Below are positions 1 to 25,074 of a DNA stretch of 25,074 nucleotides, one piece after another. The stretch comes from a virus (Duplodnaviria; Heunggongvirae; Uroviricota; Caudoviricetes), in IMG/VR virus record IMGVR_UViG_2684622619_000026; one strand, given 5' to 3'. Under the pieces are notes generated by a model, which saw only the letters and a program-made list of their open reading frames with translations, was not told where the DNA came from and did not search any database. A program made the position numbers and the translations under genes. Positions within the stretch are counted from its first letter, which is position 1. Each line of letters begins with the position of its first letter.

Positions 1-318
1 ATGAAAAAGATAGCTGCTATATCATTAATTAGTGTTTTTCTTATGTCTGGTTGTGCTGTGCATAATGATGAGACAAGTATCGGTAAATTTGGTCTTGCAT
101 ATAAAAGTAATATTCAGCGTAAACTCGATAACCAATACTACACCGAAGCCGAAGCTTCTTTAGCCAGGGGCAGAATATCTGGTGCAGAAAATATAGTAAA
201 AAATGATGCAGCCCATTTCTGTGTTACTCAGGGCAAAAAAATGCAGATAGTTGACCTGAAGACAGAAGGTGCAGGATTACATGGCGTCGCTCGTCTGACA
301 TTCAAATGTGGAGAGTGA
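1..318 (+). CDS. small lipoprotein, probably host-encoded, flanking the prophage
   Basis: Complete 105-aa ORF; N-terminal hydrophobic segment ending in lipobox L-M-S-G-C; lies outside the att core at 477-503; AT-richer than the phage backbone. Confidence 0.55.
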   Translation: MKKIAAISLISVFLMSGCAVHNDETSIGKFGLAYKSNIQRKLDNQYYTEAEASLARGRISGAENIVKNDAAHFCVTQGKKMQIVDLKTEGAGLHGVARLTFKCGE

Positions 319-476
319 GAATATTTTTTGGTAAGCGTCAAACATGCGCGTTCTGGTTGTGCTTAGCCGGAACCTGTGCGAGCACGATGCCGTTACGTGA
401 AAGGCATCGTGCTATGAAGGGAGATTCTATCGATGTGGTCAATGGAAGACGGTTATCAGGGATAGGGCTTATGCAT

Positions 477-503
477 AAAAAATAAGCCCGTGTAAGGGAG
501 ATT
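477..503. other. P2-type 27-bp attachment core (int-proximal prophage-host junction)
   Basis: Sequence AAAAAATAAGCCCGTGTAAGGGAGATT matches the P2 att core as I recall it; lies about 80 bp beyond the 3' end of int, and the DNA on its far side encodes a non-phage lipoprotein rather than ogr. Confidence 0.6.
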
Positions 504-582
504 TAGGGTGTCACCAGTAGGGGCTTTCAACGGTACAATGCGGGTTTGAGCGGCATAAATTACCACTGAAAGCCCTTAAACG

Positions 583-1596
583 TTACTCTACTGTGGACAC
601 TGTGTGGACACTCTCGGCCTCAGTACCACCTCTTAGCGGATTAAGAGAAATGGCGTCCTGAAGGTACTCTGGCGCAAAATGAGCGTAAACCATAGTTTGC
701 TCAATCCGCGTGTGACCTAGTATCCGTTGTAGCGTGATAATACTTCCTCCATTAATCATGAAATGAGTGGCAAAGCTGTGCCTTAGTGCATGTGTGGCTT
801 GCCCCATTGGCAAATCCGGTTTTATTGCTTTCATTGTTCGTCTGAAGCGAGGGTAATCAGCATCAGGGAATAAAAAACCTCGTTTGTTATCCGCGATCAT
901 TTTGGCAACAGCCTCTGAGATCGGGACGGTGCGTGGTTTGTTTGTTTTCGTTTTAACAAACGTGACGCGGTTATGGATGATATTTTCTGCTTTCAAACGA
1001 GCTGCTTCTCCCCAACGTGCTCCTGTACTTAGGCAAAGAATCGCAATCTTTTTATTGTCGCCGTCAAGTGCTGCAAGCAGTAAGGCTATTTCTTCCTGTG
1101 TGAGATAGCCTGTTTCTGGTTTTTCCTCCTTAAGCCTCTTTGTCCCTCTGATAGGATGCTCACCAAAGAATAACTCCGCTTCAATCAGGGCTGTAAACAT
1201 GCCGCTAATACATGTTAAATCACGATTGATACTCGAAGGTTTAATACCCTGACTTCTTCGGGTGGCGCAGTACTGGCTGATAAGGGATTTCGTGATTTGA
1301 AATGCGCATGGGTCATTCGTTATTTTTGTGAAGATTTCAATTTTTCCAAGATTAGATTTCCCATGCTCTTCGTGTTTACCCTTTAAATCCCACCAGATCT
1401 GTGTCAGTTCCGACAGACGTCGTTTGTCTGTTGGTTTTGATAGCCATTCTTTATTGTGGTGGTTGTACAACGTGTATTTTTCGAAAGCGACAGCTTCGCT
1501 TTTCTTATCAAACTTCCTACGGATGCGTTTTCCGTTACGTCCAGTAGGGCGGATGTCCACTTCATATCGACCATCATCGAGTTTTTTGATTGCCAT
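583..1596 (-). CDS. int: tyrosine integrase, P2 Int family
   Basis: 337-aa ORF; C-terminal catalytic signature HALRHSFATHFMINGGSIITLQRILGHTRIEQTMVYAH (R..H-x-x-R..H..Y); N-terminus MAIKKLDDGRYEVDIRP typical of P2/186-type integrases; adjacent to the att core. Confidence 0.95.
   Translation of the reverse strand: MAIKKLDDGRYEVDIRPTGRNGKRIRRKFDKKSEAVAFEKYTLYNHHNKEWLSKPTDKRRLSELTQIWWDLKGKHEEHGKSNLGKIEIFTKITNDPCAFQITKSLISQYCATRRSQGIKPSSINRDLTCISGMFTALIEAELFFGEHPIRGTKRLKEEKPETGYLTQEEIALLLAALDGDNKKIAILCLSTGARWGEAARLKAENIIHNRVTFVKTKTNKPRTVPISEAVAKMIADNKRGFLFPDADYPRFRRTMKAIKPDLPMGQATHALRHSFATHFMINGGSIITLQRILGHTRIEQTMVYAHFAPEYLQDAISLNPLRGGTEAESVHTVSTVE
592..610. repeat. two direct repeats TGTGGACA (592-599 and 603-610), candidate integrase arm-type binding sites
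   Basis: Exact 8-bp direct repeats with 11-bp periodicity inside the last codons of int, about 90 bp from the att core; P2 Int arm sites are, as I recall, direct repeats of this kind. Confidence 0.45.
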
Positions 1597-1711
1597 CAGA
1601 AAACCCTCCGAGTGGTACTTTTTTTTGCTACTACTAATCGCTTTTTTCGTGGTGGCTGAAATTTAGCCACCAATAGTAGGCACTTGTGATGAATATATTC
1701 ACGATAAATTG

Positions 1712-2011
1712 TTAACCAGTCTTTTGACCGGAGTGGGGCGACGTTGTTTCGTTTTGCCCAAAGTGTGCGAGAGCGGGCGCAATTTGCCCGGCTTCTGGAG
1801 CTACCTGATCAGTCATGAACCACAAAGTATATTTAGTAAATCTAGGATGTTGTAAGACCTTCATTATGGCTTCAACTCCAGCGTTTTTTGACCGGCTCTC
1901 ATAGCTCGAAAGTGAGCTGTAGGCTACACCAGTTAATTCACTGAATTCTTTACGGTTTAACCTTTCAGATTCACGGATTAGCTTCAACTTCTCCGAAACG
2001 TCTATTGACAT
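1712..2011 (-). CDS. C: immunity repressor C (HTH, P2 C family)
   Basis: Start moved to the internal ATG at 2011 (GGAG 7 nt upstream), giving 99 aa; HTH region LSRKEFSELTGVAYSSLSSYES; C-terminus QFTKYTLWFMTDQVAPEAGQIAPALAHFGQNETTSPHSGQKTG matches P2 C as I recall it; divergent from cox and upstream of int as in P2. Confidence 0.85.
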   Translation of the reverse strand: MSIDVSEKLKLIRESERLNRKEFSELTGVAYSSLSSYESRSKNAGVEAIMKVLQHPRFTKYTLWFMTDQVAPEAGQIAPALAHFGQNETTSPHSGQKTG

Positions 2012-2132
2012 AATTACTCCGATTGCGTAATTTCTTGCTGATAGTGTGAAATGTTGTGCTTCTGGAGTTATCCTTTTAGGCAATAATTAGCCATTAGGAG
2101 CCATTAGAAGCACTAAGGGAGAATCGTAGCAG
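2012..2132. promoter_or_regulatory. lysogeny/lytic switch region between C and cox (expected Pc/Pe promoters and operators)
   Basis: Intergenic region between divergently coded repressor and cox; contains direct repeats AGCCATTAG at 2089-2097 and 2099-2107 just upstream of the cox RBS; promoter elements not confidently resolved. Confidence 0.45.
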
Positions 2133-2408
2133 ATGAATAGACAGCTTGTAAGCGTGACTGATGCCGTGCCTTATCAGGAGTTTGCAAAACTCATTGGTAA
2201 AACTCCAAGAGCTGTAAGGGGCATGATTGAGAAAGGGAAATTACCAGTTATTGAGATTACTGACCCTCAGTCAGTATCGGGGCGTGCTGGTGAATATTGG
2301 GTATACCTTCCGGCATGGAATAACGGACTAAAACTGGCTTATGAAAGCCGTCCTAAAGAGATTCGTGACGGCTGGTTGATGTGGTTAGGTCTCGGTGAAC
2401 CACGTTAA
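2133..2408 (+). CDS. cox: Cox-like excisionase/transcriptional regulator
   Basis: 91 aa, the size of P2 Cox; motifs PYQEFAKLIGK and AGEYWVYLPAWNNGLKLAYESRPKEIRDGWLMWLGLGEPR match my recollection of P2 Cox; RBS AAGGGAGA upstream; position immediately opposite C. Confidence 0.8.
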   Translation: MNRQLVSVTDAVPYQEFAKLIGKTPRAVRGMIEKGKLPVIEITDPQSVSGRAGEYWVYLPAWNNGLKLAYESRPKEIRDGWLMWLGLGEPR

Positions 2409-2418
2409 GGAGAACCGT

Positions 2419-2589
2419 ATGAATGAGCCTCGTTGTATTGCTCAGTTATTGCGTAACGAAAGCCCCAGGGCGATTGACTTCACCATCACCCACGGTAAGG
2501 GGCGTAAGGGAATCATTATCCGCACCAAAAAACAGAGTCCGTTAAAAAAGGCTCTGACCTTTCTGAAAAGCCGGAGGGTCTGGAAATGA
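2419..2589 (+). CDS. small basic hypothetical protein (P2 orf78-position)
   Basis: Strong SD AAGGAG 7 nt upstream of the ATG at 2419, so this start is preferred over the GTG at 2395 in the ORF track; 56 aa, lysine/arginine rich; stop overlaps the next gene start. Confidence 0.5.
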   Translation: MNEPRCIAQLLRNESPRAIDFTITHGKGRKGIIIRTKKQSPLKKALTFLKSRRVWK

Positions 2590-3086
2590 CAGTGATGACG
2601 CTCAATCTCGTTGAAAAACAGCCAGCAGCTATGCGCCGGATAATTGGCAAGCATCTTGCCGTCCCTCGCTGGCAGGATACATGTGATTATTATAATCAGA
2701 TGATGGAACGCGAACGGCTAACGGTTTGCTTCCATGCGCAGTTAAAACAGCGTCACGCAACGATGCGTTTTGAAGAAATGAACGACGTCGAACGTGAACG
2801 GCTGGTTTGTGCAATTGATGAATTGCGTGGGGCATTCTCAAAACGCCGTCAGGTTGGCGCAAGTGAGTATGCATATATTAGTTTTTTAACAGTCAGTCAG
2901 CGTCGTACTTTATTTATGCATGCCGGATTGACTGAAAAAGAATTCAACCAGCCATACTGGCGAATTAATGAAGAATCATGTTACTGGCGTGATGCTTTAT
3001 TCCGTGCATTACGTGAATTATTCAGCCTGTTTGAGTATGCACCGACAATTCTGACGTCGGTAAAACCAGAGCAATATCTGCATTAA
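2586..3086 (+). CDS. B: replication gene B-like protein
   Basis: 166 aa, the size of P2 B; synteny (cox, small orf, B); GGAGGG upstream of the ATG; identity is by position and size recollection, not a verified alignment. Confidence 0.6.
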   Translation: MTVMTLNLVEKQPAAMRRIIGKHLAVPRWQDTCDYYNQMMERERLTVCFHAQLKQRHATMRFEEMNDVERERLVCAIDELRGAFSKRRQVGASEYAYISFLTVSQRRTLFMHAGLTEKEFNQPYWRINEESCYWRDALFRALRELFSLFEYAPTILTSVKPEQYLH

Positions 3087-6533: not shown

Positions 6534-7757
6534 ATGAGCATGGTTGAATGGATAAGCCACGAGAAAAAAGATAGCCTGATACTATTTGTACATGGATTAA
6601 ATGGTGGTTTGGAAACATGGAACTTTAATAAAGAAACTTCATTTCCAAAACTATTAGCAGAAGATGAAGACATTGGCAATGTATTTGATATTGCATGTTT
6701 CAATTATTTCACCAAATTTACACAAACGTATGCTAAAACGTCAGGATTATGGGCTCGTATTTTCTCTAAGAAAAATAAGTTAGAGAGAAATTTACCAACT
6801 GATGAAATAGCTGAGTTATTGTATACTGAGATTAGGGTAACGCTAAGTGATTACTCTCGAATTATAATAATCGCCCATAGTATGGGGGGGGTAATATCAA
6901 AAAATCTAATTCTAAAAAAAGTTGAGCATGAGGAACAATCTAATATAATTGGATTCATTTCGTTAGCAGTCCCTCACTTTGGTGCTAAATTGGCGAATAT
7001 AACTTCAATGGTATCTTCAAATGCTCAGTTAGTAGATCTTGGATTGTTAAGTGAAGCGACCGATACGTTGAATAGGCGCTGGATAAATTGTAGCAAAAAA
7101 CTTCCTATCACTAGATATGTTTATGGTTCTCATGACACTATAGTTGATAAAAAAAGCGCATTACCGATGGATAGTGAACGAAATAACTCAATTGCAGTTA
7201 ATGAAGGGCATAGCTCAATTTGCAAGCCCGAAAACAGCTCGTCTACAGTGTTTGTTGCGGTAAAGCAATTTATTCAGCAGATAAATTTAGAAGCACCCAA
7301 GAAGATATGTGTTGAGCGTTTTTCTGATGAGAAACAATATGATAATGAGTATTTCGTCTTAAAAATGATTGTCGCAGATATACATCAGGATATCGCTATG
7401 CATGCAAAGGAATATTATTATAATGCTGAGCTTGCGAGAAATATTTTTACGAGTGATTACGATAGGAAACTACTTGGTCATTTGTATTCTAAAATAAGGG
7501 AGATTTACCAGGAAGAGTATGAGCAATATATCGCGAATTCAATTTCCCCAGATAAATTTATTGCTGCTGTTCATAGACGAATAGCCCAAGAGGATAAGTC
7601 GTCGTTAGATTCTCTTATAAAAAGTTTAGAAACGATACATAAGAAAGGAATGTTGCATCAACTGGCTAACAAAAATGACAGGGATATTGTCTGGTCATCT
7701 GAAACCAGCGTAGAAACTTTGGAGCAATTACGGCGAGGTAATCATGAAGAAAAATAA
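6534..7757 (+). CDS. alpha/beta-hydrolase (serine esterase/lipase-like) effector candidate with C-terminal helical domain; first gene of cargo cassette
   Basis: 407 aa; LILFVHGLNGG (oxyanion-hole-like HG) and nucleophile elbow IIIAHSMGGV (G-x-S-x-G) in the N-terminal ~230 aa; candidate Asp (GSHDTIVD) and His (NEGHSSI); C-terminal ~170 aa charged and helical; about 33% GC versus >50% for the backbone. Confidence 0.7.
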   Translation: MSMVEWISHEKKDSLILFVHGLNGGLETWNFNKETSFPKLLAEDEDIGNVFDIACFNYFTKFTQTYAKTSGLWARIFSKKNKLERNLPTDEIAELLYTEIRVTLSDYSRIIIIAHSMGGVISKNLILKKVEHEEQSNIIGFISLAVPHFGAKLANITSMVSSNAQLVDLGLLSEATDTLNRRWINCSKKLPITRYVYGSHDTIVDKKSALPMDSERNNSIAVNEGHSSICKPENSSSTVFVAVKQFIQQINLEAPKKICVERFSDEKQYDNEYFVLKMIVADIHQDIAMHAKEYYYNAELARNIFTSDYDRKLLGHLYSKIREIYQEEYEQYIANSISPDKFIAAVHRRIAQEDKSSLDSLIKSLETIHKKGMLHQLANKNDRDIVWSSETSVETLEQLRRGNHEEK

Positions 7758-8256
7758 CTTGCCGTATATTCCTCTTGATGAAGAGTATAGCTTGAATTTT
7801 GCTATGCTTGCCATTGCTATATCTATATTATCTCATAGCAAAAAAGGAGTGTTATCATTAGATATTAATAAAATACAAATTTTTATGTATCTGATAAAAA
7901 ACCCATCAAAAATTGATTATGCTCTTACAGTTTCGGGGAAAAAGCCTGCTTGTGTCGAGTCCCAGTTAACTTATACAATAAAGAGTTTTTCAACAAATGT
8001 AGATATCTTATTCGACAATTCCAAAGTGAAATATCTTATAAAAATTATGTCATTGCGGGGATTGCTCTCAGCTGAGAAAAAAAATAATGAGAGTGTTAAA
8101 TTATTTTTATCTGAAAAAGGTAAGGAATTTGCTAGCTCATTGACTGATGGATATTTTAAAGAAATAAAACGACTATCCGAAGCATTGTTACCGCTACAAG
8201 CATTGCCTACCTCTAAGTTAAACTCTGTTATAAATCAAGTCTTCAAGGAGAAATGA
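7744..8256 (+). CDS. small protein, middle gene of cargo cassette (putative adaptor)
   Basis: 170 aa; GAGG SD 5 nt upstream; start overlaps the upstream stop by 14 nt and its stop overlaps the downstream start (ATGA); no recognisable catalytic motif; AT-rich. Confidence 0.65.
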   Translation: MKKNNLPYIPLDEEYSLNFAMLAIAISILSHSKKGVLSLDINKIQIFMYLIKNPSKIDYALTVSGKKPACVESQLTYTIKSFSTNVDILFDNSKVKYLIKIMSLRGLLSAEKKNNESVKLFLSEKGKEFASSLTDGYFKEIKRLSEALLPLQALPTSKLNSVINQVFKEK

Positions 8257-10223
8257 TGAAATCATATCTCAATATCAATAGTTTGATTCTTGTTGGCGTT
8301 CGTAAAAACTACGTCACTACTTTTTATAAAGGTCTCAATGTTATCTACGGAGACTCTGACACAGGTAAGTCAAGCATTCTGGAGTTTATTAATTATCTTT
8401 TAGGTGCTAGCTCTATAGATTTAGCAGATGAAATAAAAACATCAGTAAACTATGCTGCTCTTGAAGTAGTGATCAATGATACTGTATTCACAATCGTAAG
8501 AGATATCTATGATCATAAAAAAGCAATAGAAGTTTATCGTTGTAAGTTTGATGATTTACATAAACATTTTCCGAAAAAATACGCTCCTAATTATAGCCCA
8601 TTATCAAATGTTGATGGTGTTTTTTCGGAGTTTTTACTTGATAGTCTTAATTTTCCAAAGATTGAAATTAAGGTGTCTCCTTCTAAAGCTCATTCACAGA
8701 TGCGCAGGTTAAGTTTTAGAAATATATATAAATTTGTTTATGTAAGTCAGGATGATATTGGTAGTAAATCTTTCTTGCGATTGGGTGATTGGTCCCGCTA
8801 CGCATTTACGAAAGAAGTTTTTAAATACATGTTCAATGTGTTGGATGAAAGCATCGCCAGACTCCAAGGTGAAATATCTGCAAAAAGTAGTTTAGTAACG
8901 GAATTAAATAGGAAGTATCAGATAATATCTGAATTTCTTCGCGATACAGACTATGAAACGATTGAATCAATTGATGATGAGATTAATAGGATAGATCTTG
9001 TTTTAGAAGAACTTGTTGCAGGTTTGTCTGCTCTCGATAAAAATATGAAAGCGGATTCCATACAGTATACAGAATTGAAAGATGCTCACAATTTTATTTC
9101 GCTTAAATACAAAGAGTGCATATTAAATATTACTGCGCTTGAGGATAAGATTGATAAATATTCGCGGTTAAAAAATGACTATGATAATGATATTGAAAAA
9201 CTCAAAGCGATTAAAACAGCAAATTCTCGCATTGGTGTATTGGATAAGGAAGTATTTTCCTGTCCAGTCTGTGATAGCCACATTAAAATAGATGATTCTG
9301 ATTTTCCATTTGAAATTTCATCAGAAAAAGATCTTAATGAAGAGTTGAATTCACTTAGTCGACGTAGACGAAATATTAATGACATGATCTCAGAAATGTC
9401 ATTTAAATTAAAAAAAGAATCAGGTTATAAAAAGGAATTAGATGAACGACTTGACGAGTTGAGAGAATTGATTGACGAAGAAAGCCAGTCAATGATTACA
9501 CCATTCTTGACTCAGAGAGATTTTTATATTAAAGAGATCTCAAAAAATGAGAAGGTTAGGGAGCAGTTAGTAAAAGATTTGAAGGTTAGAAACCAGCAAG
9601 AGGAACTGCTTGAAAAGTATCAGGTACTGAGAAAAGATATTGAAGCATTAACTGAACGCTTGGAGGCGTTAAAGAAAAACGCACCTAGCATGGAGGGCAT
9701 TTTACAAGGTTTGGGTGATAGATTTAGTCAGTATTTGAAGGGTATTAATATCAAAAACAGAACGGGGATAAAAATCTCTGAAAGCTATTACATTCCTGTT
9801 ATAAGAGAAAAAGAATATTTTAAAATAACATCCGGAGGTTTGAGAACTATTTCTTCTATTGGGTATCTTTTGTCTATTCTTGATTATGCAATAGATCATA
9901 ATGTTAACCATCCTTTACTTTTGATATTTGATACGGTTGGCAAATATTTAGGGAAACAGACCAAGGAAAAATATTCAAAAGAAACTCTTGCATTCGAGGA
10001 TGACCTTGAGGGAATGTCAGATCCGATGAAGTATCAAAATATTTATGAACAACTATTGAATACAGTTCAAAAAGCAGAAAGAAAAAATGTTCCGTGCCAG
10101 ATTATATTAGTTGATAATGATTTGCCTAATTCGTTTTCTACTGGTGAACTTTCGAATATTATCGCTCATTATAGCTCGGTTGGTGAGGACGGTTTGCCTT
10201 TAGGTTTAATTGATGACCTTTAA
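8253..10223 (+). CDS. SMC/Rad50-like ABC ATPase with central CxxC motif; third gene of cargo cassette
   Basis: 656 aa; N-terminal Walker A GDSDTGKSS; long heptad-like charged middle region; CPVC near residue 337 (mid-protein); C-terminal TSGG signature-like motif followed by hydrophobic-D LLLIFDT (Walker B-like) and ILVDND. Start may be the ATG at 8256 (better spacing from AAGGAG). Confidence 0.75.
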   Translation: MMKSYLNINSLILVGVRKNYVTTFYKGLNVIYGDSDTGKSSILEFINYLLGASSIDLADEIKTSVNYAALEVVINDTVFTIVRDIYDHKKAIEVYRCKFDDLHKHFPKKYAPNYSPLSNVDGVFSEFLLDSLNFPKIEIKVSPSKAHSQMRRLSFRNIYKFVYVSQDDIGSKSFLRLGDWSRYAFTKEVFKYMFNVLDESIARLQGEISAKSSLVTELNRKYQIISEFLRDTDYETIESIDDEINRIDLVLEELVAGLSALDKNMKADSIQYTELKDAHNFISLKYKECILNITALEDKIDKYSRLKNDYDNDIEKLKAIKTANSRIGVLDKEVFSCPVCDSHIKIDDSDFPFEISSEKDLNEELNSLSRRRRNINDMISEMSFKLKKESGYKKELDERLDELRELIDEESQSMITPFLTQRDFYIKEISKNEKVREQLVKDLKVRNQQEELLEKYQVLRKDIEALTERLEALKKNAPSMEGILQGLGDRFSQYLKGINIKNRTGIKISESYYIPVIREKEYFKITSGGLRTISSIGYLLSILDYAIDHNVNHPLLLIFDTVGKYLGKQTKEKYSKETLAFEDDLEGMSDPMKYQNIYEQLLNTVQKAERKNVPCQIILVDNDLPNSFSTGELSNIIAHYSSVGEDGLPLGLIDDL

Positions 10224-20423: not shown

Positions 20424-20767
20424 CAGCGCGTTATCTCGGAATGAATCGCAGTGATGGCCTGACTGTCACTGACCTTGAGCATATCAGCCAGAGTATCGGC
20501 GATATCCTGCGTACACCGGTCGGCTCACGGGTGATGCGTCGTGATTACGGCTCGTTGCTGGCATTAATGATTGACCAGCCGCAGACCCCGGCGCTTGAGT
20601 TGCAGATTAAGGTCGCCTGTTACATGGCGGTGCTGAAATGGGAACCCCGCGTCACCCTGTCATCCGTCACTACTGAGCGCAGTTTTGACGGGCGAATGAC
20701 GGTCACGTTAACCGGCCAGCACAACGACACCGGCCAGCCACTTTCGTTAACCATCCCTGTGAGTTGA
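20420..20767 (+). CDS. W: baseplate protein W
   Basis: 115 aa; ATGA overlap with V; P2 order. Confidence 0.85.
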   Translation: MTARYLGMNRSDGLTVTDLEHISQSIGDILRTPVGSRVMRRDYGSLLALMIDQPQTPALELQIKVACYMAVLKWEPRVTLSSVTTERSFDGRMTVTLTGQHNDTGQPLSLTIPVS

Positions 20768-21680: not shown

Positions 21681-22284
21681 TTCGCGCCTGCTGCCGACCG
21701 GCTCATCACCGCTTGAAGTCGCCGCCGCAAGAGCCTGTGCGGAAATTGAAAAAACGCCGGTCAGTATTCGTGAGCTGTGGAACCCGGATACCTGTCCGGC
21801 AAATCTGCTGCCGTGGCTGGCGTGGTCATTTTCGGTTGACCGCTGGGATGATAAGTGGCCGGAAGCGACAAAACGCGCTGTTATCCGCGATGCGTATTTC
21901 ATTCACTGCCATAAGGGCACTATTGGTGCGATTCGCCGTGTGGTGGAGCCGCTCGGCTATCTGATTGAGGTGAGGGAGTGGTGGCAGCTCAACGAGGAGC
22001 CGGGGACGTTCCGCATCGTTGTTGGCGTGCTTGAGCAGGGTATTACCGAGGAAATGTATCAGGAGCTGGAGCGTCTCGTTGCTGATGCAAAACCTGCAAG
22101 CCGCCATCTGACGGGACTGGCTATCAGTTTAAGTACAACCGGCAACATTTTTGCCGGTGCGGGATGCTATCACGGCGACGCCCTGACGGTTTATCCCTAC
22201 ACCCCGGAGGCCATTATTGTCGGAGGGGATTATTTCCCGGCCTCGGCCATTCATTTAATTGATAACCTGAGAGTAAACGCATGA
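21673..22284 (+). CDS. I: baseplate protein I
   Basis: N-terminus MSDSRLLPTGSSPLEVAAA recognised as P2 gpI-like; overlaps J and H ends. Confidence 0.85.
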   Translation: MSDSRLLPTGSSPLEVAAARACAEIEKTPVSIRELWNPDTCPANLLPWLAWSFSVDRWDDKWPEATKRAVIRDAYFIHCHKGTIGAIRRVVEPLGYLIEVREWWQLNEEPGTFRIVVGVLEQGITEEMYQELERLVADAKPASRHLTGLAISLSTTGNIFAGAGCYHGDALTVYPYTPEAIIVGGDYFPASAIHLIDNLRVNA

Positions 22285-23665
22285 CAGTGAAATACTACGC
22301 CATTCTGACTAATCAGGGCGCGGCACGGCTGGCTAACGCGACGATGCTCGGCAGTAAGCTGAATCTGACGCAAATGGCCGTTGGTGATGCAAATGGTGTC
22401 TTGCCGACACCTGACCCGGCACAGACAAAACTTATTAACCAGAAACGCATCGCGCCGCTGAATCTTCTGAGTGTTGACCCGAACAACCAGAGCCAGATTA
22501 TTGCGGAGCAAATCATCCCTGAGAACGAGGGCGGATTCTGGATCCGTGAGATTGGGCTTTATGATGATGAAGGCGTACTCATTGCGGTGGCGAACTGCCC
22601 GGAAACGTACAAACCGCAGTTACAGGAAGGCAGCGGTCGTACCCAGACTATCCGCATGATTCTGGTTGTCACGAATACCGAAGCCATCACGCTGAAAATC
22701 GACCCGTCGGTGGTACTGGCGACCCGTAAATACGTGGATGATAAAGTCCTGGAATTAAGGCTGTATGTGGATGACCAGATGAGAAACCACATTGCCGCAC
22801 AGGATCCTCATACCCAGTATGCGCAGAAACATAATCCGACATTTACCGGAGAACCAAAAGCGCCAACGCCTGCCGCAGGAAATAACACCACGCGGATTGC
22901 GACCACTGAGTTTGTTCAGACCGCTATTACCGCTCTGATTAACGGCGCGCCAGACACGCTGGACACACTGAAAGAAATTGCCGCGGCCATTAACAATGAC
23001 CCGAAATTCAGCACCACCATTAACAATGCGCTGTCAGGTAAGCAGCCACTGGATGAGACGCTGACTCATTTGAGTGGAAAGGATGTTGCCGGTCTTCTCG
23101 CATACCTTGGTTTGGGAGAAGNNNNNNNNNNNNNNNNNNNNNNNNNNNNNNNNNNNNNNNNNNNNNNNNNNTTGGTTTGGGAGAAGGTTCGGCATTACCC
23201 GTTGGTGTGCCTGTTCCGTGGCCTTCAGCCACTCCGCCGACAGGCTGGCTGAAATGCAACGGGGCGGCTTTTTCTGCTGAAGAATACCCGGAACTGGCAA
23301 AGGTTTACCCGACAAATAAATTGCCTGATTTACGTGGTGAGTTTATTCGTGGCTGGGATGACGGACGTGGAGTGGATAACGGAAGGGGATTATTGACGCT
23401 TCAGGACGGTGCGATTGTCAGTCATAACCACTATTGGGGAATCTGGACTTCACGAACTAACGACCAGACTCTGGAAAGTTTTACAGGCACCACGATTTTA
23501 AAACAAATCACGCCCCTGTCTCCGGCCATTAACTTCGATAATTACCCAATTCCCAACCCGGCTATTACAGAGGGTGGTGTTGTTGCGGCAACGACTAAAC
23601 CTGCAGGTGCGAATGAAACACGCCCACGAAATGTCGCTTTTAACTATATTGTGAGGGCTGCATAA
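22281..23665 (+). CDS. H: tail fibre protein H (constant part 22281-23121 plus currently joined variable C-terminal segment 23172-23665; interrupted by a scaffold gap)
   Basis: Constant part ends ...AYLGLGE at the gap; after the gap the frame continues GLGEGSALPVGVPVPWPSATPP...; collapsing the 15-bp duplicate flanking the Ns gives a continuous in-frame gene. Confidence 0.8.
23122..23171. other. assembly/scaffold gap (50 N)
   Basis: Run of 50 N flanked on both sides by the same 15-nt sequence TTGGTTTGGGAGAAG (23107-23121 and 23172-23186). Confidence 0.95.
23174..23186 (+). repeat. left inverted repeat / candidate recombination crossover site
   Basis: GGTTTGGGAGAAG encoding G-L-G-E at the constant/variable junction of H. 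Confidence 0.6.
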
Positions 23666-24267
23666 TGAATAACGCAGAATTAAACAGTGAATTAATTGCC
23701 ACTATGGCAGGAGAAATTACTGTTTATAACTTTGATGTCATGAGTCGGGAATATATTTCAGCTTCAACTGAATATCTTGCTATTGGTGTCGGCATTCCGG
23801 CATATTCCTGTTTAGATGCCCCAGGCGCATACAAAGCTGGTTATGCAATCTGCCGTTCTGCAGATTTTAACTCATGGGAATATGTGCCAGACCATCGCGG
23901 TGAAATCGTCTTTAGCACCGAAACAGGAGAATCAAAAGAAATCACCGCTCCGGGTGATTACCCTGATAATACAACCACTATCGCCCCGTTAACGCCATAC
24001 GATAAATGGGATGGTGAGAAATGGGTGACGGATACCGAAGCACAGCATAGCGCCGCAGTAGAAGCGGCAGAAACACAACGCCAGTCGCTGATTGATACTG
24101 CAATGGCTTCCATTAGTCTGATTCAGCTGAAATTACAGGCCGGACGGAAGCTGACGCAGGCAGAAACCAACCGACTTAACACGGTGCTGGATTACATTGA
24201 CGCGGTGACGGCAACAGATACCAGCACCGCGCCGGATGTCATCTGGCCTGAACTGCCGGAGGCGTAG
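23665..24267 (+). CDS. G: tail fibre assembly chaperone G
   Basis: 200 aa immediately after the fibre gene (ATGA overlap); C-terminal LDYIDAVTATDTSTAPDVIWPELPEA resembles the conserved Tfa C-terminus. Confidence 0.85.
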   Translation: MNNAELNSELIATMAGEITVYNFDVMSREYISASTEYLAIGVGIPAYSCLDAPGAYKAGYAICRSADFNSWEYVPDHRGEIVFSTETGESKEITAPGDYPDNTTTIAPLTPYDKWDGEKWVTDTEAQHSAAVEAAETQRQSLIDTAMASISLIQLKLQAGRKLTQAETNRLNTVLDYIDAVTATDTSTAPDVIWPELPEA

Positions 24268-24682
24268 GCCATTCAATATCTGGCGCACTGGCGGTATCGA
24301 CCAGCTCCAGTGCGTCCAGATAATCCAGCCACAAATTATATTGTGCCAGTTCCTCACCTTTCAGACGACCAATAGCGGCTTTACCGGGCCATTGCTTACT
24401 GTTCATGTATTCGTTGGCCTGGTTAATTAGTAGCTGTCTTTCTGATTCAGTAATTTCAATAAGTTCTTCATGCGTGGGTGGAGGAATATCTGCCCACGCA
24501 GGCAGCCCATCATCTCCGGCAATACGGATTTTTCCTTGTGGCGGTTCAGCCATAAACTCACTGATAATATTTTGATTTACTTCCTTAGCGTCTGATAAAT
24601 CCCATCCCTCTGATTTATATTTATCAATCATATCCACAGGGAAAAAAGCATTATGCCTTGCGCTATAAACATATTCGTTCAT
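24239..24682 (-). CDS. alternative tail fibre assembly chaperone (Tfa-prime, partner of the minus-strand fibre segment)
   Basis: Start taken at ATG 24682 (MNEYVY...; AGGGTGA upstream); C-terminus LWLDYLDALELVDTASAPDIEWPTPPAVQAR parallels the C-terminus of G; converges on and overlaps G by 29 nt. Confidence 0.75.
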   Translation of the reverse strand: MNEYVYSARHNAFFPVDMIDKYKSEGWDLSDAKEVNQNIISEFMAEPPQGKIRIAGDDGLPAWADIPPPTHEELIEITESERQLLINQANEYMNSKQWPGKAAIGRLKGEELAQYNLWLDYLDALELVDTASAPDIEWPTPPAVQAR

Positions 24683-24702
24683 ATAAATCACCCTAAATAA
24701 AA

Positions 24703-25074
24703 TTACTCACCAACAGCCCACCAACTGTAATTCATCGATACCGTGTCGCTGGTTGATGACGTTCTGTAAGCAGAATTAAAGCCGGTTAACGTTGGGCCTT
24801 CTGCAGTCATCACGAACCCTCGCCCAGCGCCTAAAGGCGCACCGCCATCACCAGAATGAGTAAGCATGGCGCAGTCCGCTTTTTTGGGGAAAGGGATGCT
24901 GAATGTAATTCTCATTGTTTGCGTCGATAATGTCGGCGTAACCGCACCACGACCATATTGCAGGATTTTCCCGTTGGGTAATTTCATCCATCCATTACCA
25001 CTGGCAAAAGAGGCCATGTCCGGTATCTGATTTTCCCCTGTCCCCACATCCCGTTTTGCCGCTTCTCCCAAACC
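24703..25074 (-). CDS. alternative tail fibre C-terminal (receptor-binding) segment, promoterless, no own start; partial at window edge
   Basis: Minus-strand frame runs from the window edge (GLGEAAKRDVGTGENQIPD...) to a stop at 24703, directly followed by Tfa-prime; shares the G-L-G-E junction with the constant part of H. Confidence 0.65.
   Translation of the reverse strand, partial: GLGEAAKRDVGTGENQIPDMASFASGNGWMKLPNGKILQYGRGAVTPTLSTQTMRITFSIPFPKKADCAMLTHSGDGGAPLGAGRGFVMTAEGPTLTGFNSAYRTSSTSDTVSMNYSWWAVGE
25062..25074 (-). repeat. right inverted repeat / candidate recombination crossover site (truncated by window end)
   Basis: Reverse complement of the window's last 13 nt is GGTTTGGGAGAAG, in frame with the minus-strand alternative fibre segment. 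Confidence 0.6.

Follow-up and report, generated by a model that had tools for sequence, protein, structure and literature searches.

Where on this bacterial chromosome does the viral DNA begin, and is the junction still one from which the element could leave? The window, the whole stretch of 25,074 nt that we analysed, had been the subject of a preliminary description, which placed a prophage boundary near its left end, at a 27-bp sequence taken for the attP core of phage P2 and lying just beyond int, and suggested an intact junction competent for excision. Our comparisons make it very probable that positions 477–617 are the attL site (B-O-P′) of a P2-type prophage (genus Peduovirus), inserted at locI, the 3′ end of cyaR between yegR and yegQ, in a chromosome of the Escherichia coli O157:H7 type. 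An attL at locI/cyaR is a textbook P2 junction, already known, and adds nothing to the biology of site-specific recombination.

The core itself leaves little room for doubt. The 27-mer AAAAAATAAGCCCGTGTAAGGGAGATT occupies positions 477–503 of the plus strand and is identical to the attP core annotated in the P2 genome (AF063097, 24356–24382), as the preliminary description had it; this is the 27 bp (O) common to attP and attB. A scan permitting up to three mismatches found this single match and no second core in the window, which stops at 25,074. In addition to the core, the P2 record annotates a Cox-binding region (24399–24472), int (24462–25475) and the P′ arm site of Int (24470–24496), and an offset of 23,879 converts these positions to those of the window. 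By identity with P2, the binding region of Cox, the excision directionality factor, is thus assigned to 520–593 (no strand), and the P′ arm-type binding site of Int to 591–617 on the plus strand, corresponding to the P2 features "protein_bind Cox" and "protein_bind Int, P′ arm". Nucleotide identity to P2 is 100% over 477–640, a stretch that takes in core, Cox region and P′ arm, and a megablast search of phage records gave 98% identity to P2 over 476–1841. Several of the phage matches started at 469 rather than 476, and shared sequence to the left of the core was therefore suspected; alignment revealed this to be a spurious extension by megablast.

The two exact direct repeats that the preliminary description had seen in the last codons of int are also where it put them. 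The octamer TGTGGACA has exactly two copies in the 25 kb, at 592–599 and 603–610, with starts 11 bp apart, and both sit inside the P′ arm-type site and within codons 329–336 of the 337 of int. The arm-type repeat of P2-type integrases has the consensus tgTGGaCa (PMC3448106). An adjacent pair of octamers, one helical turn apart, that agrees base for base with the P′ arm site annotated in P2 is not a product of chance. Between core and P′ arm, a scan for cox-boxes found two convergent 9-mers, each with one mismatch to the consensus, where TGAAAGCCC lies at 521–529 on the minus strand and at 567–575 on the plus strand; the published consensus is TTAAA(G/C)NC(A/C), six such boxes in both orientations are present at attP, and Cox has been proposed to act at attL in excision (PMC3936717). 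A scan for an intrinsic terminator of int at the junction found none, and the fold of the minus-strand RNA consisted only of a 3-bp hairpin in the core and a long hairpin in which the convergent cox-boxes pair, with z = −1.6.

The gene that ends in this arm, int, is an open reading frame of 337 codons at 583–1596 on the minus strand, whose product has the Pfam domains Int_N and Phage_integrase and is the P2 integrase, a heterobivalent tyrosine recombinase. All 337 of the 337 amino acids are identical to those of P2 Int, and each of the 11 nucleotide differences between the two genes is silent. The gene reads towards the core and directly adjoins the junction: its stop codon is at 583–585, leaving 79 bp between core and stop, where about 80 had been estimated.

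On the other side of the core, the preliminary description expected DNA foreign to the phage, and this is largely what we found. Positions 1–476 consist of yegR (1–318, plus strand; an open reading frame annotated as yegR in the matching E. coli genomes) and the spacer downstream of it; matches to them occur in 5,418 of the 5,426 complete E. coli genomes, with 100% identity in O157:H7 strains, among them PV15-279. The flank is thus host chromosome, with the qualification that its last ~47 bp appear to be a decayed P2 P arm, to which we return below. Strain PV15-279 of O157:H7 has no prophage at this place and reads yegR, core, then ACACAGGCTAAGGAGG and onwards to yegQ, with cyaR between yegR and yegQ. 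In that genome, the Rfam CyaR model matches the minus strand of L002 at 20480–20565 with 100.7 bits, and the core is at 20477–20503; since the match overlaps the core, the latter makes up the 3′ terminator half, with the T-run, of cyaR on the minus strand, a site that we take to be the classical P2 site locI. At the junction of the window, CyaR gave no match, neither in a search of the whole window at the Rfam gathering threshold nor, in any meaningful form, at 300–700 with E ≤ 10; no more than the final ~24 nt of the gene are present there. "cyaR RNA" is listed as the insertion site of P2-type prophages in E. coli W and B (PMC3032704). Among the 5,426 complete E. coli genomes, the empty B-core-B′ site is present in 4,188 and the B-core-P′ junction in 780, and the exact core is also the 3′ end of cyaR in Kluyvera species and Enterobacter hormaechei.

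A prophage boundary of this kind calls for a second core at the distal end and an empty allele from which the element is cleanly missing, and related strains provide both. Many O157:H7 genomes (EC4115, TW14359, JEONG-1266 and others) match window positions 200–2600 at 100%, and JEONG-1266 (L003) differs from the window by one mismatch over 23,121 bp. In JEONG-1266, a second exact core lies in direct orientation at 32437–32463, giving a prophage of 31,960 bp from core to core; the second copy that the preliminary description asked for does exist, 31,960 bp to the right, while the window itself contains one. Before the distal core come ogr with its terminator and then the P arm (tcgatgtggtcaatatgtggacgtgacc and onwards), and after it an intact cyaR and yegQ, the full-length CyaR match scoring 100.7 bits exactly as at the empty site. 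When window positions 1–503 were joined to L003 from 32464 onwards, the resulting sequence reproduced the empty site of PV15-279 with 0 mismatches in 5,503 bp, and the comparison with an empty allele thus came out as anticipated. The four att forms compare as follows: attP as P arm-core-P′ (P2, P22H4), attB as B-core-B′ (PV15-279), attL as B-core-P′ (the window) and attR as P-core-B′ (the distal junction of JEONG-1266), and the core is the sole sequence common to them. With the yegR flank on the left, 24.6 kb of contiguous P2-like genes (96–97% identical to P2-type phages) within the window on the right, and an exact empty-site allele, the boundary is where it had been drawn.

How such a junction would work can be read from P2. 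P2 Int, a heterobivalent tyrosine recombinase, contacts arm repeats through its N-terminal domain and the core through its core-binding and catalytic domains; the P arm is bent by IHF; and Cox, which polymerises on cox-boxes between core and P′, prevents integration and is needed for excision. Transferred from the footprinted P2 system on the strength of sequence identity, this means that the core-binding and catalytic domains of Int would act on the core at 477–503, its N-terminal domain would bind the two TGTGGACA arm repeats (592–610), located where int itself ends, and Cox would polymerise on the cox-boxes in 520–593 and steer the reaction to excision. The partner attR would lie outside the window, ~32 kb further right, with a P arm carrying two arm repeats, an IHF site, the core and the intact cyaR, and recombination of attL and attR by Int, IHF and Cox would give a circular attP and an empty attB. 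That these sites are used in the strain is plausible from the identity of all cis sites and of Int with P2.

Compared with P2 itself (AF063097), core, Cox region, P′ arm repeats and Int are identical, and the insertion site, the cyaR 3′ end, is the same. The differences lie in the immunity module, where the N-terminal halves of C and Cox and the operators come from a heteroimmune relative, and in the cargo at the tin/old position. Compared with the attL of lambda (B-O-P′), the junction shares a heterobivalent tyrosine integrase acting on core and arm sites, an int gene beside the P′ arm and the need, in excision, for a directionality factor of the small winged-helix kind. The two systems differ in that Xis of lambda binds the P arm, on the attR side, whereas the Cox sites of P2 lie between core and P′, on the attL side; P2 furthermore has just one IHF site and uses Cox as a repressor in the lytic switch as well (PMC3936717).

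Two further regions of the window deserve mention. At the tin/old position of P2, positions 6534–10223 hold three genes of a system named "ABC-three component system" in RefSeq, together with an AAA ATPase, and the segment looks like defence-type cargo at a known variable hotspot of P2. At the right end, 23122–25074 is inverted relative to JEONG-1266 and bounded by inverted repeats of ~50 bp, and a recombinase (invertase) gene is found just beyond the window end, at L003 25079–25672; the segment appears to be an invertible tail-fibre segment. A run of 50 Ns at 23122–23171 falls exactly at the left inverted repeat, and as this gap makes the open reading frames across 22281–23665 unreliable, they were left uninterpreted.

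While the structure of the junction is clear, its competence for excision is no more than plausible. Int and both att junctions are intact; excision itself would depend on a Cox that differs from that of P2 at residues proposed to set its DNA specificity. DNA homology to P2 ends at 1841 and resumes at ~2155, and the immunity module between them (1842–2155), including the operator region, is unrelated to P2; the N-terminal half of C, the operator region and Cox residues 2–48 therefore differ from P2. The C-type immunity repressor (1712–2011, minus strand; Pfam HTH_3) is accordingly P2-like in its C-terminal half and different, as in a heteroimmune phage, in its N-terminal HTH half, with 64 of 99 amino acids identical to P2 C and the differences concentrated in the N-terminal half. 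The cox gene, encoding the excision directionality factor and repressor of Pc (2133–2408, plus strand; Pfam Phage_Cox, 1.7e-42), specifies a protein with 76 of 91 amino acids identical to P2 Cox, every change falling within residues 2–48; its residues P25, R26, G30 and E33 stand in place of T25, G26, R30 and D33 of P2, positions that have been implicated in DNA recognition (PMC3936717). These comparisons describe a mosaic prophage, with a pure P2 Cox site at attL (520–593) and a Cox whose DNA-binding half differs from that of P2. The spacer between C and cox yielded only two weak matches to the cox-box, compared with seven for P2. The same spacer contains the direct repeats GCCATTAG at 2090–2097 and 2100–2107, which may be operators.

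Taken together, we lean towards the prophage being able to excise. The most serious alternative, less likely in our view yet far from negligible, is that the junction is structurally intact but the prophage is locked in or defective, either because the mosaic Cox fails on the P2-type cox-boxes of attL or because other functions have been lost. The heteroimmune P2-like coliphages P2 Hy dis and WPhi, whose C/Cox switches likewise differ from that of P2, are the natural comparison here. T25 and D33 have been proposed as the likely specificity residues of Cox; the Cox of Hy dis (T25, E33), which keeps a P2-compatible function, complements a P2 cox3 prophage, and that of WPhi (P25, K33) does not (PMC3936717). 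The Cox of the prophage departs from P2 at 24–26, 30 and 33 and shares P25 with the non-complementing WPhi protein, which speaks for a locked-in element, as does the paucity of cox-boxes in its own C-cox region, which suggests a changed specificity; against this, it shares E33 with the Hy dis protein that does complement P2. Compared by these residues, WPhi-like at 25 and Hy dis-like at 33, the mosaic Cox is intermediate between the two, and its behaviour is not predictable from sequence. The tail-fibre gene of JEONG-1266 is annotated as incomplete, which could indicate lost functions, but the annotation is confounded by the invertible segment, and int and cox, like the two att junctions, are intact.

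The wider distribution of the mosaic also argues against an element that was trapped once and for all. The same repressor type and att module are found in many IMG/VR prophage loci and adjoin several chromosomal-arm alleles there, pointing to more than one integration of the mosaic. A metagenome contig of 33.6 kb (L040), with 100% amino acid identity in the repressor and 98.25% identity in the int-att module over the shared stretch, is the one case in attP form, reading ogr, P arm, core, P′, int and C. The only close match to this immunity type in the phage collection is ON470606 (L005, "Escherichia phage vB_EcoM-720R8"). Beyond its attL core, this record continues into yegR, yegS and the gat repressor and is not a packaged genome; we considered it as evidence of excision and rejected it, the host yegR, yegS and gat genes marking it as an excerpt of a prophage. 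How excision could be probed is a separate matter: P2-type prophages are not known to be SOS-inducible, and since their repressors are not known to be cleaved in the SOS response, "induction", the check suggested at the outset, is unsuited as a test.

Much less credible, and in our judgement very improbable, is the idea that the junction belongs to nothing but a cryptic remnant. The idea has a precedent at the very same locus, as the K-12 chromosome carries an "ogr-D′" relic that is listed at cyaR (PMC3032704). In K-12 (L006, 3978–4004), a degenerate left core, of which the first 18 of 27 nt survive, runs into a D′ fragment and is followed by ogrK, the P arm, the intact core and cyaR; the relic arose via a deletion that began inside the attL core. 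The ogrK-D′ remnant and the present element thus share the locus and the structure of the attR side (ogr, P arm, core, cyaR). They differ on the left, where K-12 has the truncated core fused to D′ and no int, cox or P′ arm, and the window has an intact junction and int. The 24.6 kb of contiguous P2-like genes rule out a mere remnant here, as does the complete 31,960-bp prophage with both cores in the matched JEONG-1266.

Weakest of all is the reading of the 27-mer and the octamer pair as chance or coding features with no role in recombination, which we consider refuted: two copies of TGTGGACA somewhere in 25 kb, it is true, turned up in 14 of 100 shuffles and are not rare alone, and one-mismatch copies are no more frequent than expected by chance, but the 27-mer was absent from the shuffles, is exactly duplicated at both ends of the prophage and is all that the four att forms have in common, and the octamers fall exactly on the P′ arm site annotated for P2 Int.

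With the junction taken as a P2-type attL, the chromosomal (B) arm beside the core remains to be considered. Positions 430–476 on the plus strand are P-arm-like but decayed, with one surviving arm-type repeat, TGTGGTCA, at 434–441. The 15-mer at 430–444 (TCGATGTGGTCAATG) is an exact copy of part of the Int site in the P arm of P2, and none of 1000 shuffles scored as high. The arm allele of the window has a deletion of ~12 nt, and what is left beyond the 15-mer has no significance alone. Longer alleles of the arm, from other strains (L009 and L017), align with the P arm as far as the core; past the 15-mer they are identical to it at 32 and 29 of 44 positions, and 0–2 of 2000 shuffles score as high. 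The arm of Escherichia sp. MOD1-EC7003 (L109) matches the P arm at 49 of 64 positions, including ATAAATCCTT and TTTCATTG. The final 10 nt of the core, AAGGGAGATT, are also present at 417–426, as a core-like sequence. From these alignments, the homology of the chromosomal arm to the P2 P arm appears well supported, and the "empty" locI of Escherichia looks like the attR scar of an ancient P2-like prophage. In the searchable literature, we found no description of a relic P arm at locI and, on cyaR together with attB, nothing beyond PMC3032704.

Other alleles were seen around the same core. In L046 (IMG/VR) and L102 (Escherichia ruysiae), where the prophage junction has another host-arm allele, yegR and the fossil arm are missing, and core and P′ arm lie directly beside the region upstream of yegS. 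Two further loci, L090 (E. coli ECDA1023) and L108 (Kluyvera intermedia), have a divergent P arm ahead of the exact core and cyaR, that of L108 including ttggatgtggtaaatgcgtggacattgagagaaataaattc and that of L090 being closely similar, not identical. Divergent P arms at an unchanged core imply that other P2-like lineages, including those of Kluyvera, use the same 27-bp core.

Whether the fossil arm still matters is pure speculation. We think it improbable that its TGTGGTCA at 434–441 still binds Int and influences recombination at locI; if it did, the arm could add to the strong preference of P2 for locI or alter the geometry of the excisome at attL.

Overall, our analyses fix the left-hand end of a P2-type prophage and show the element in the textbook P2 site, with cyaR undamaged. 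The junction is of use for annotation and for strain typing, the prophage being present in O157:H7 of the EC4115/TW14359 type and absent from PV15-279.
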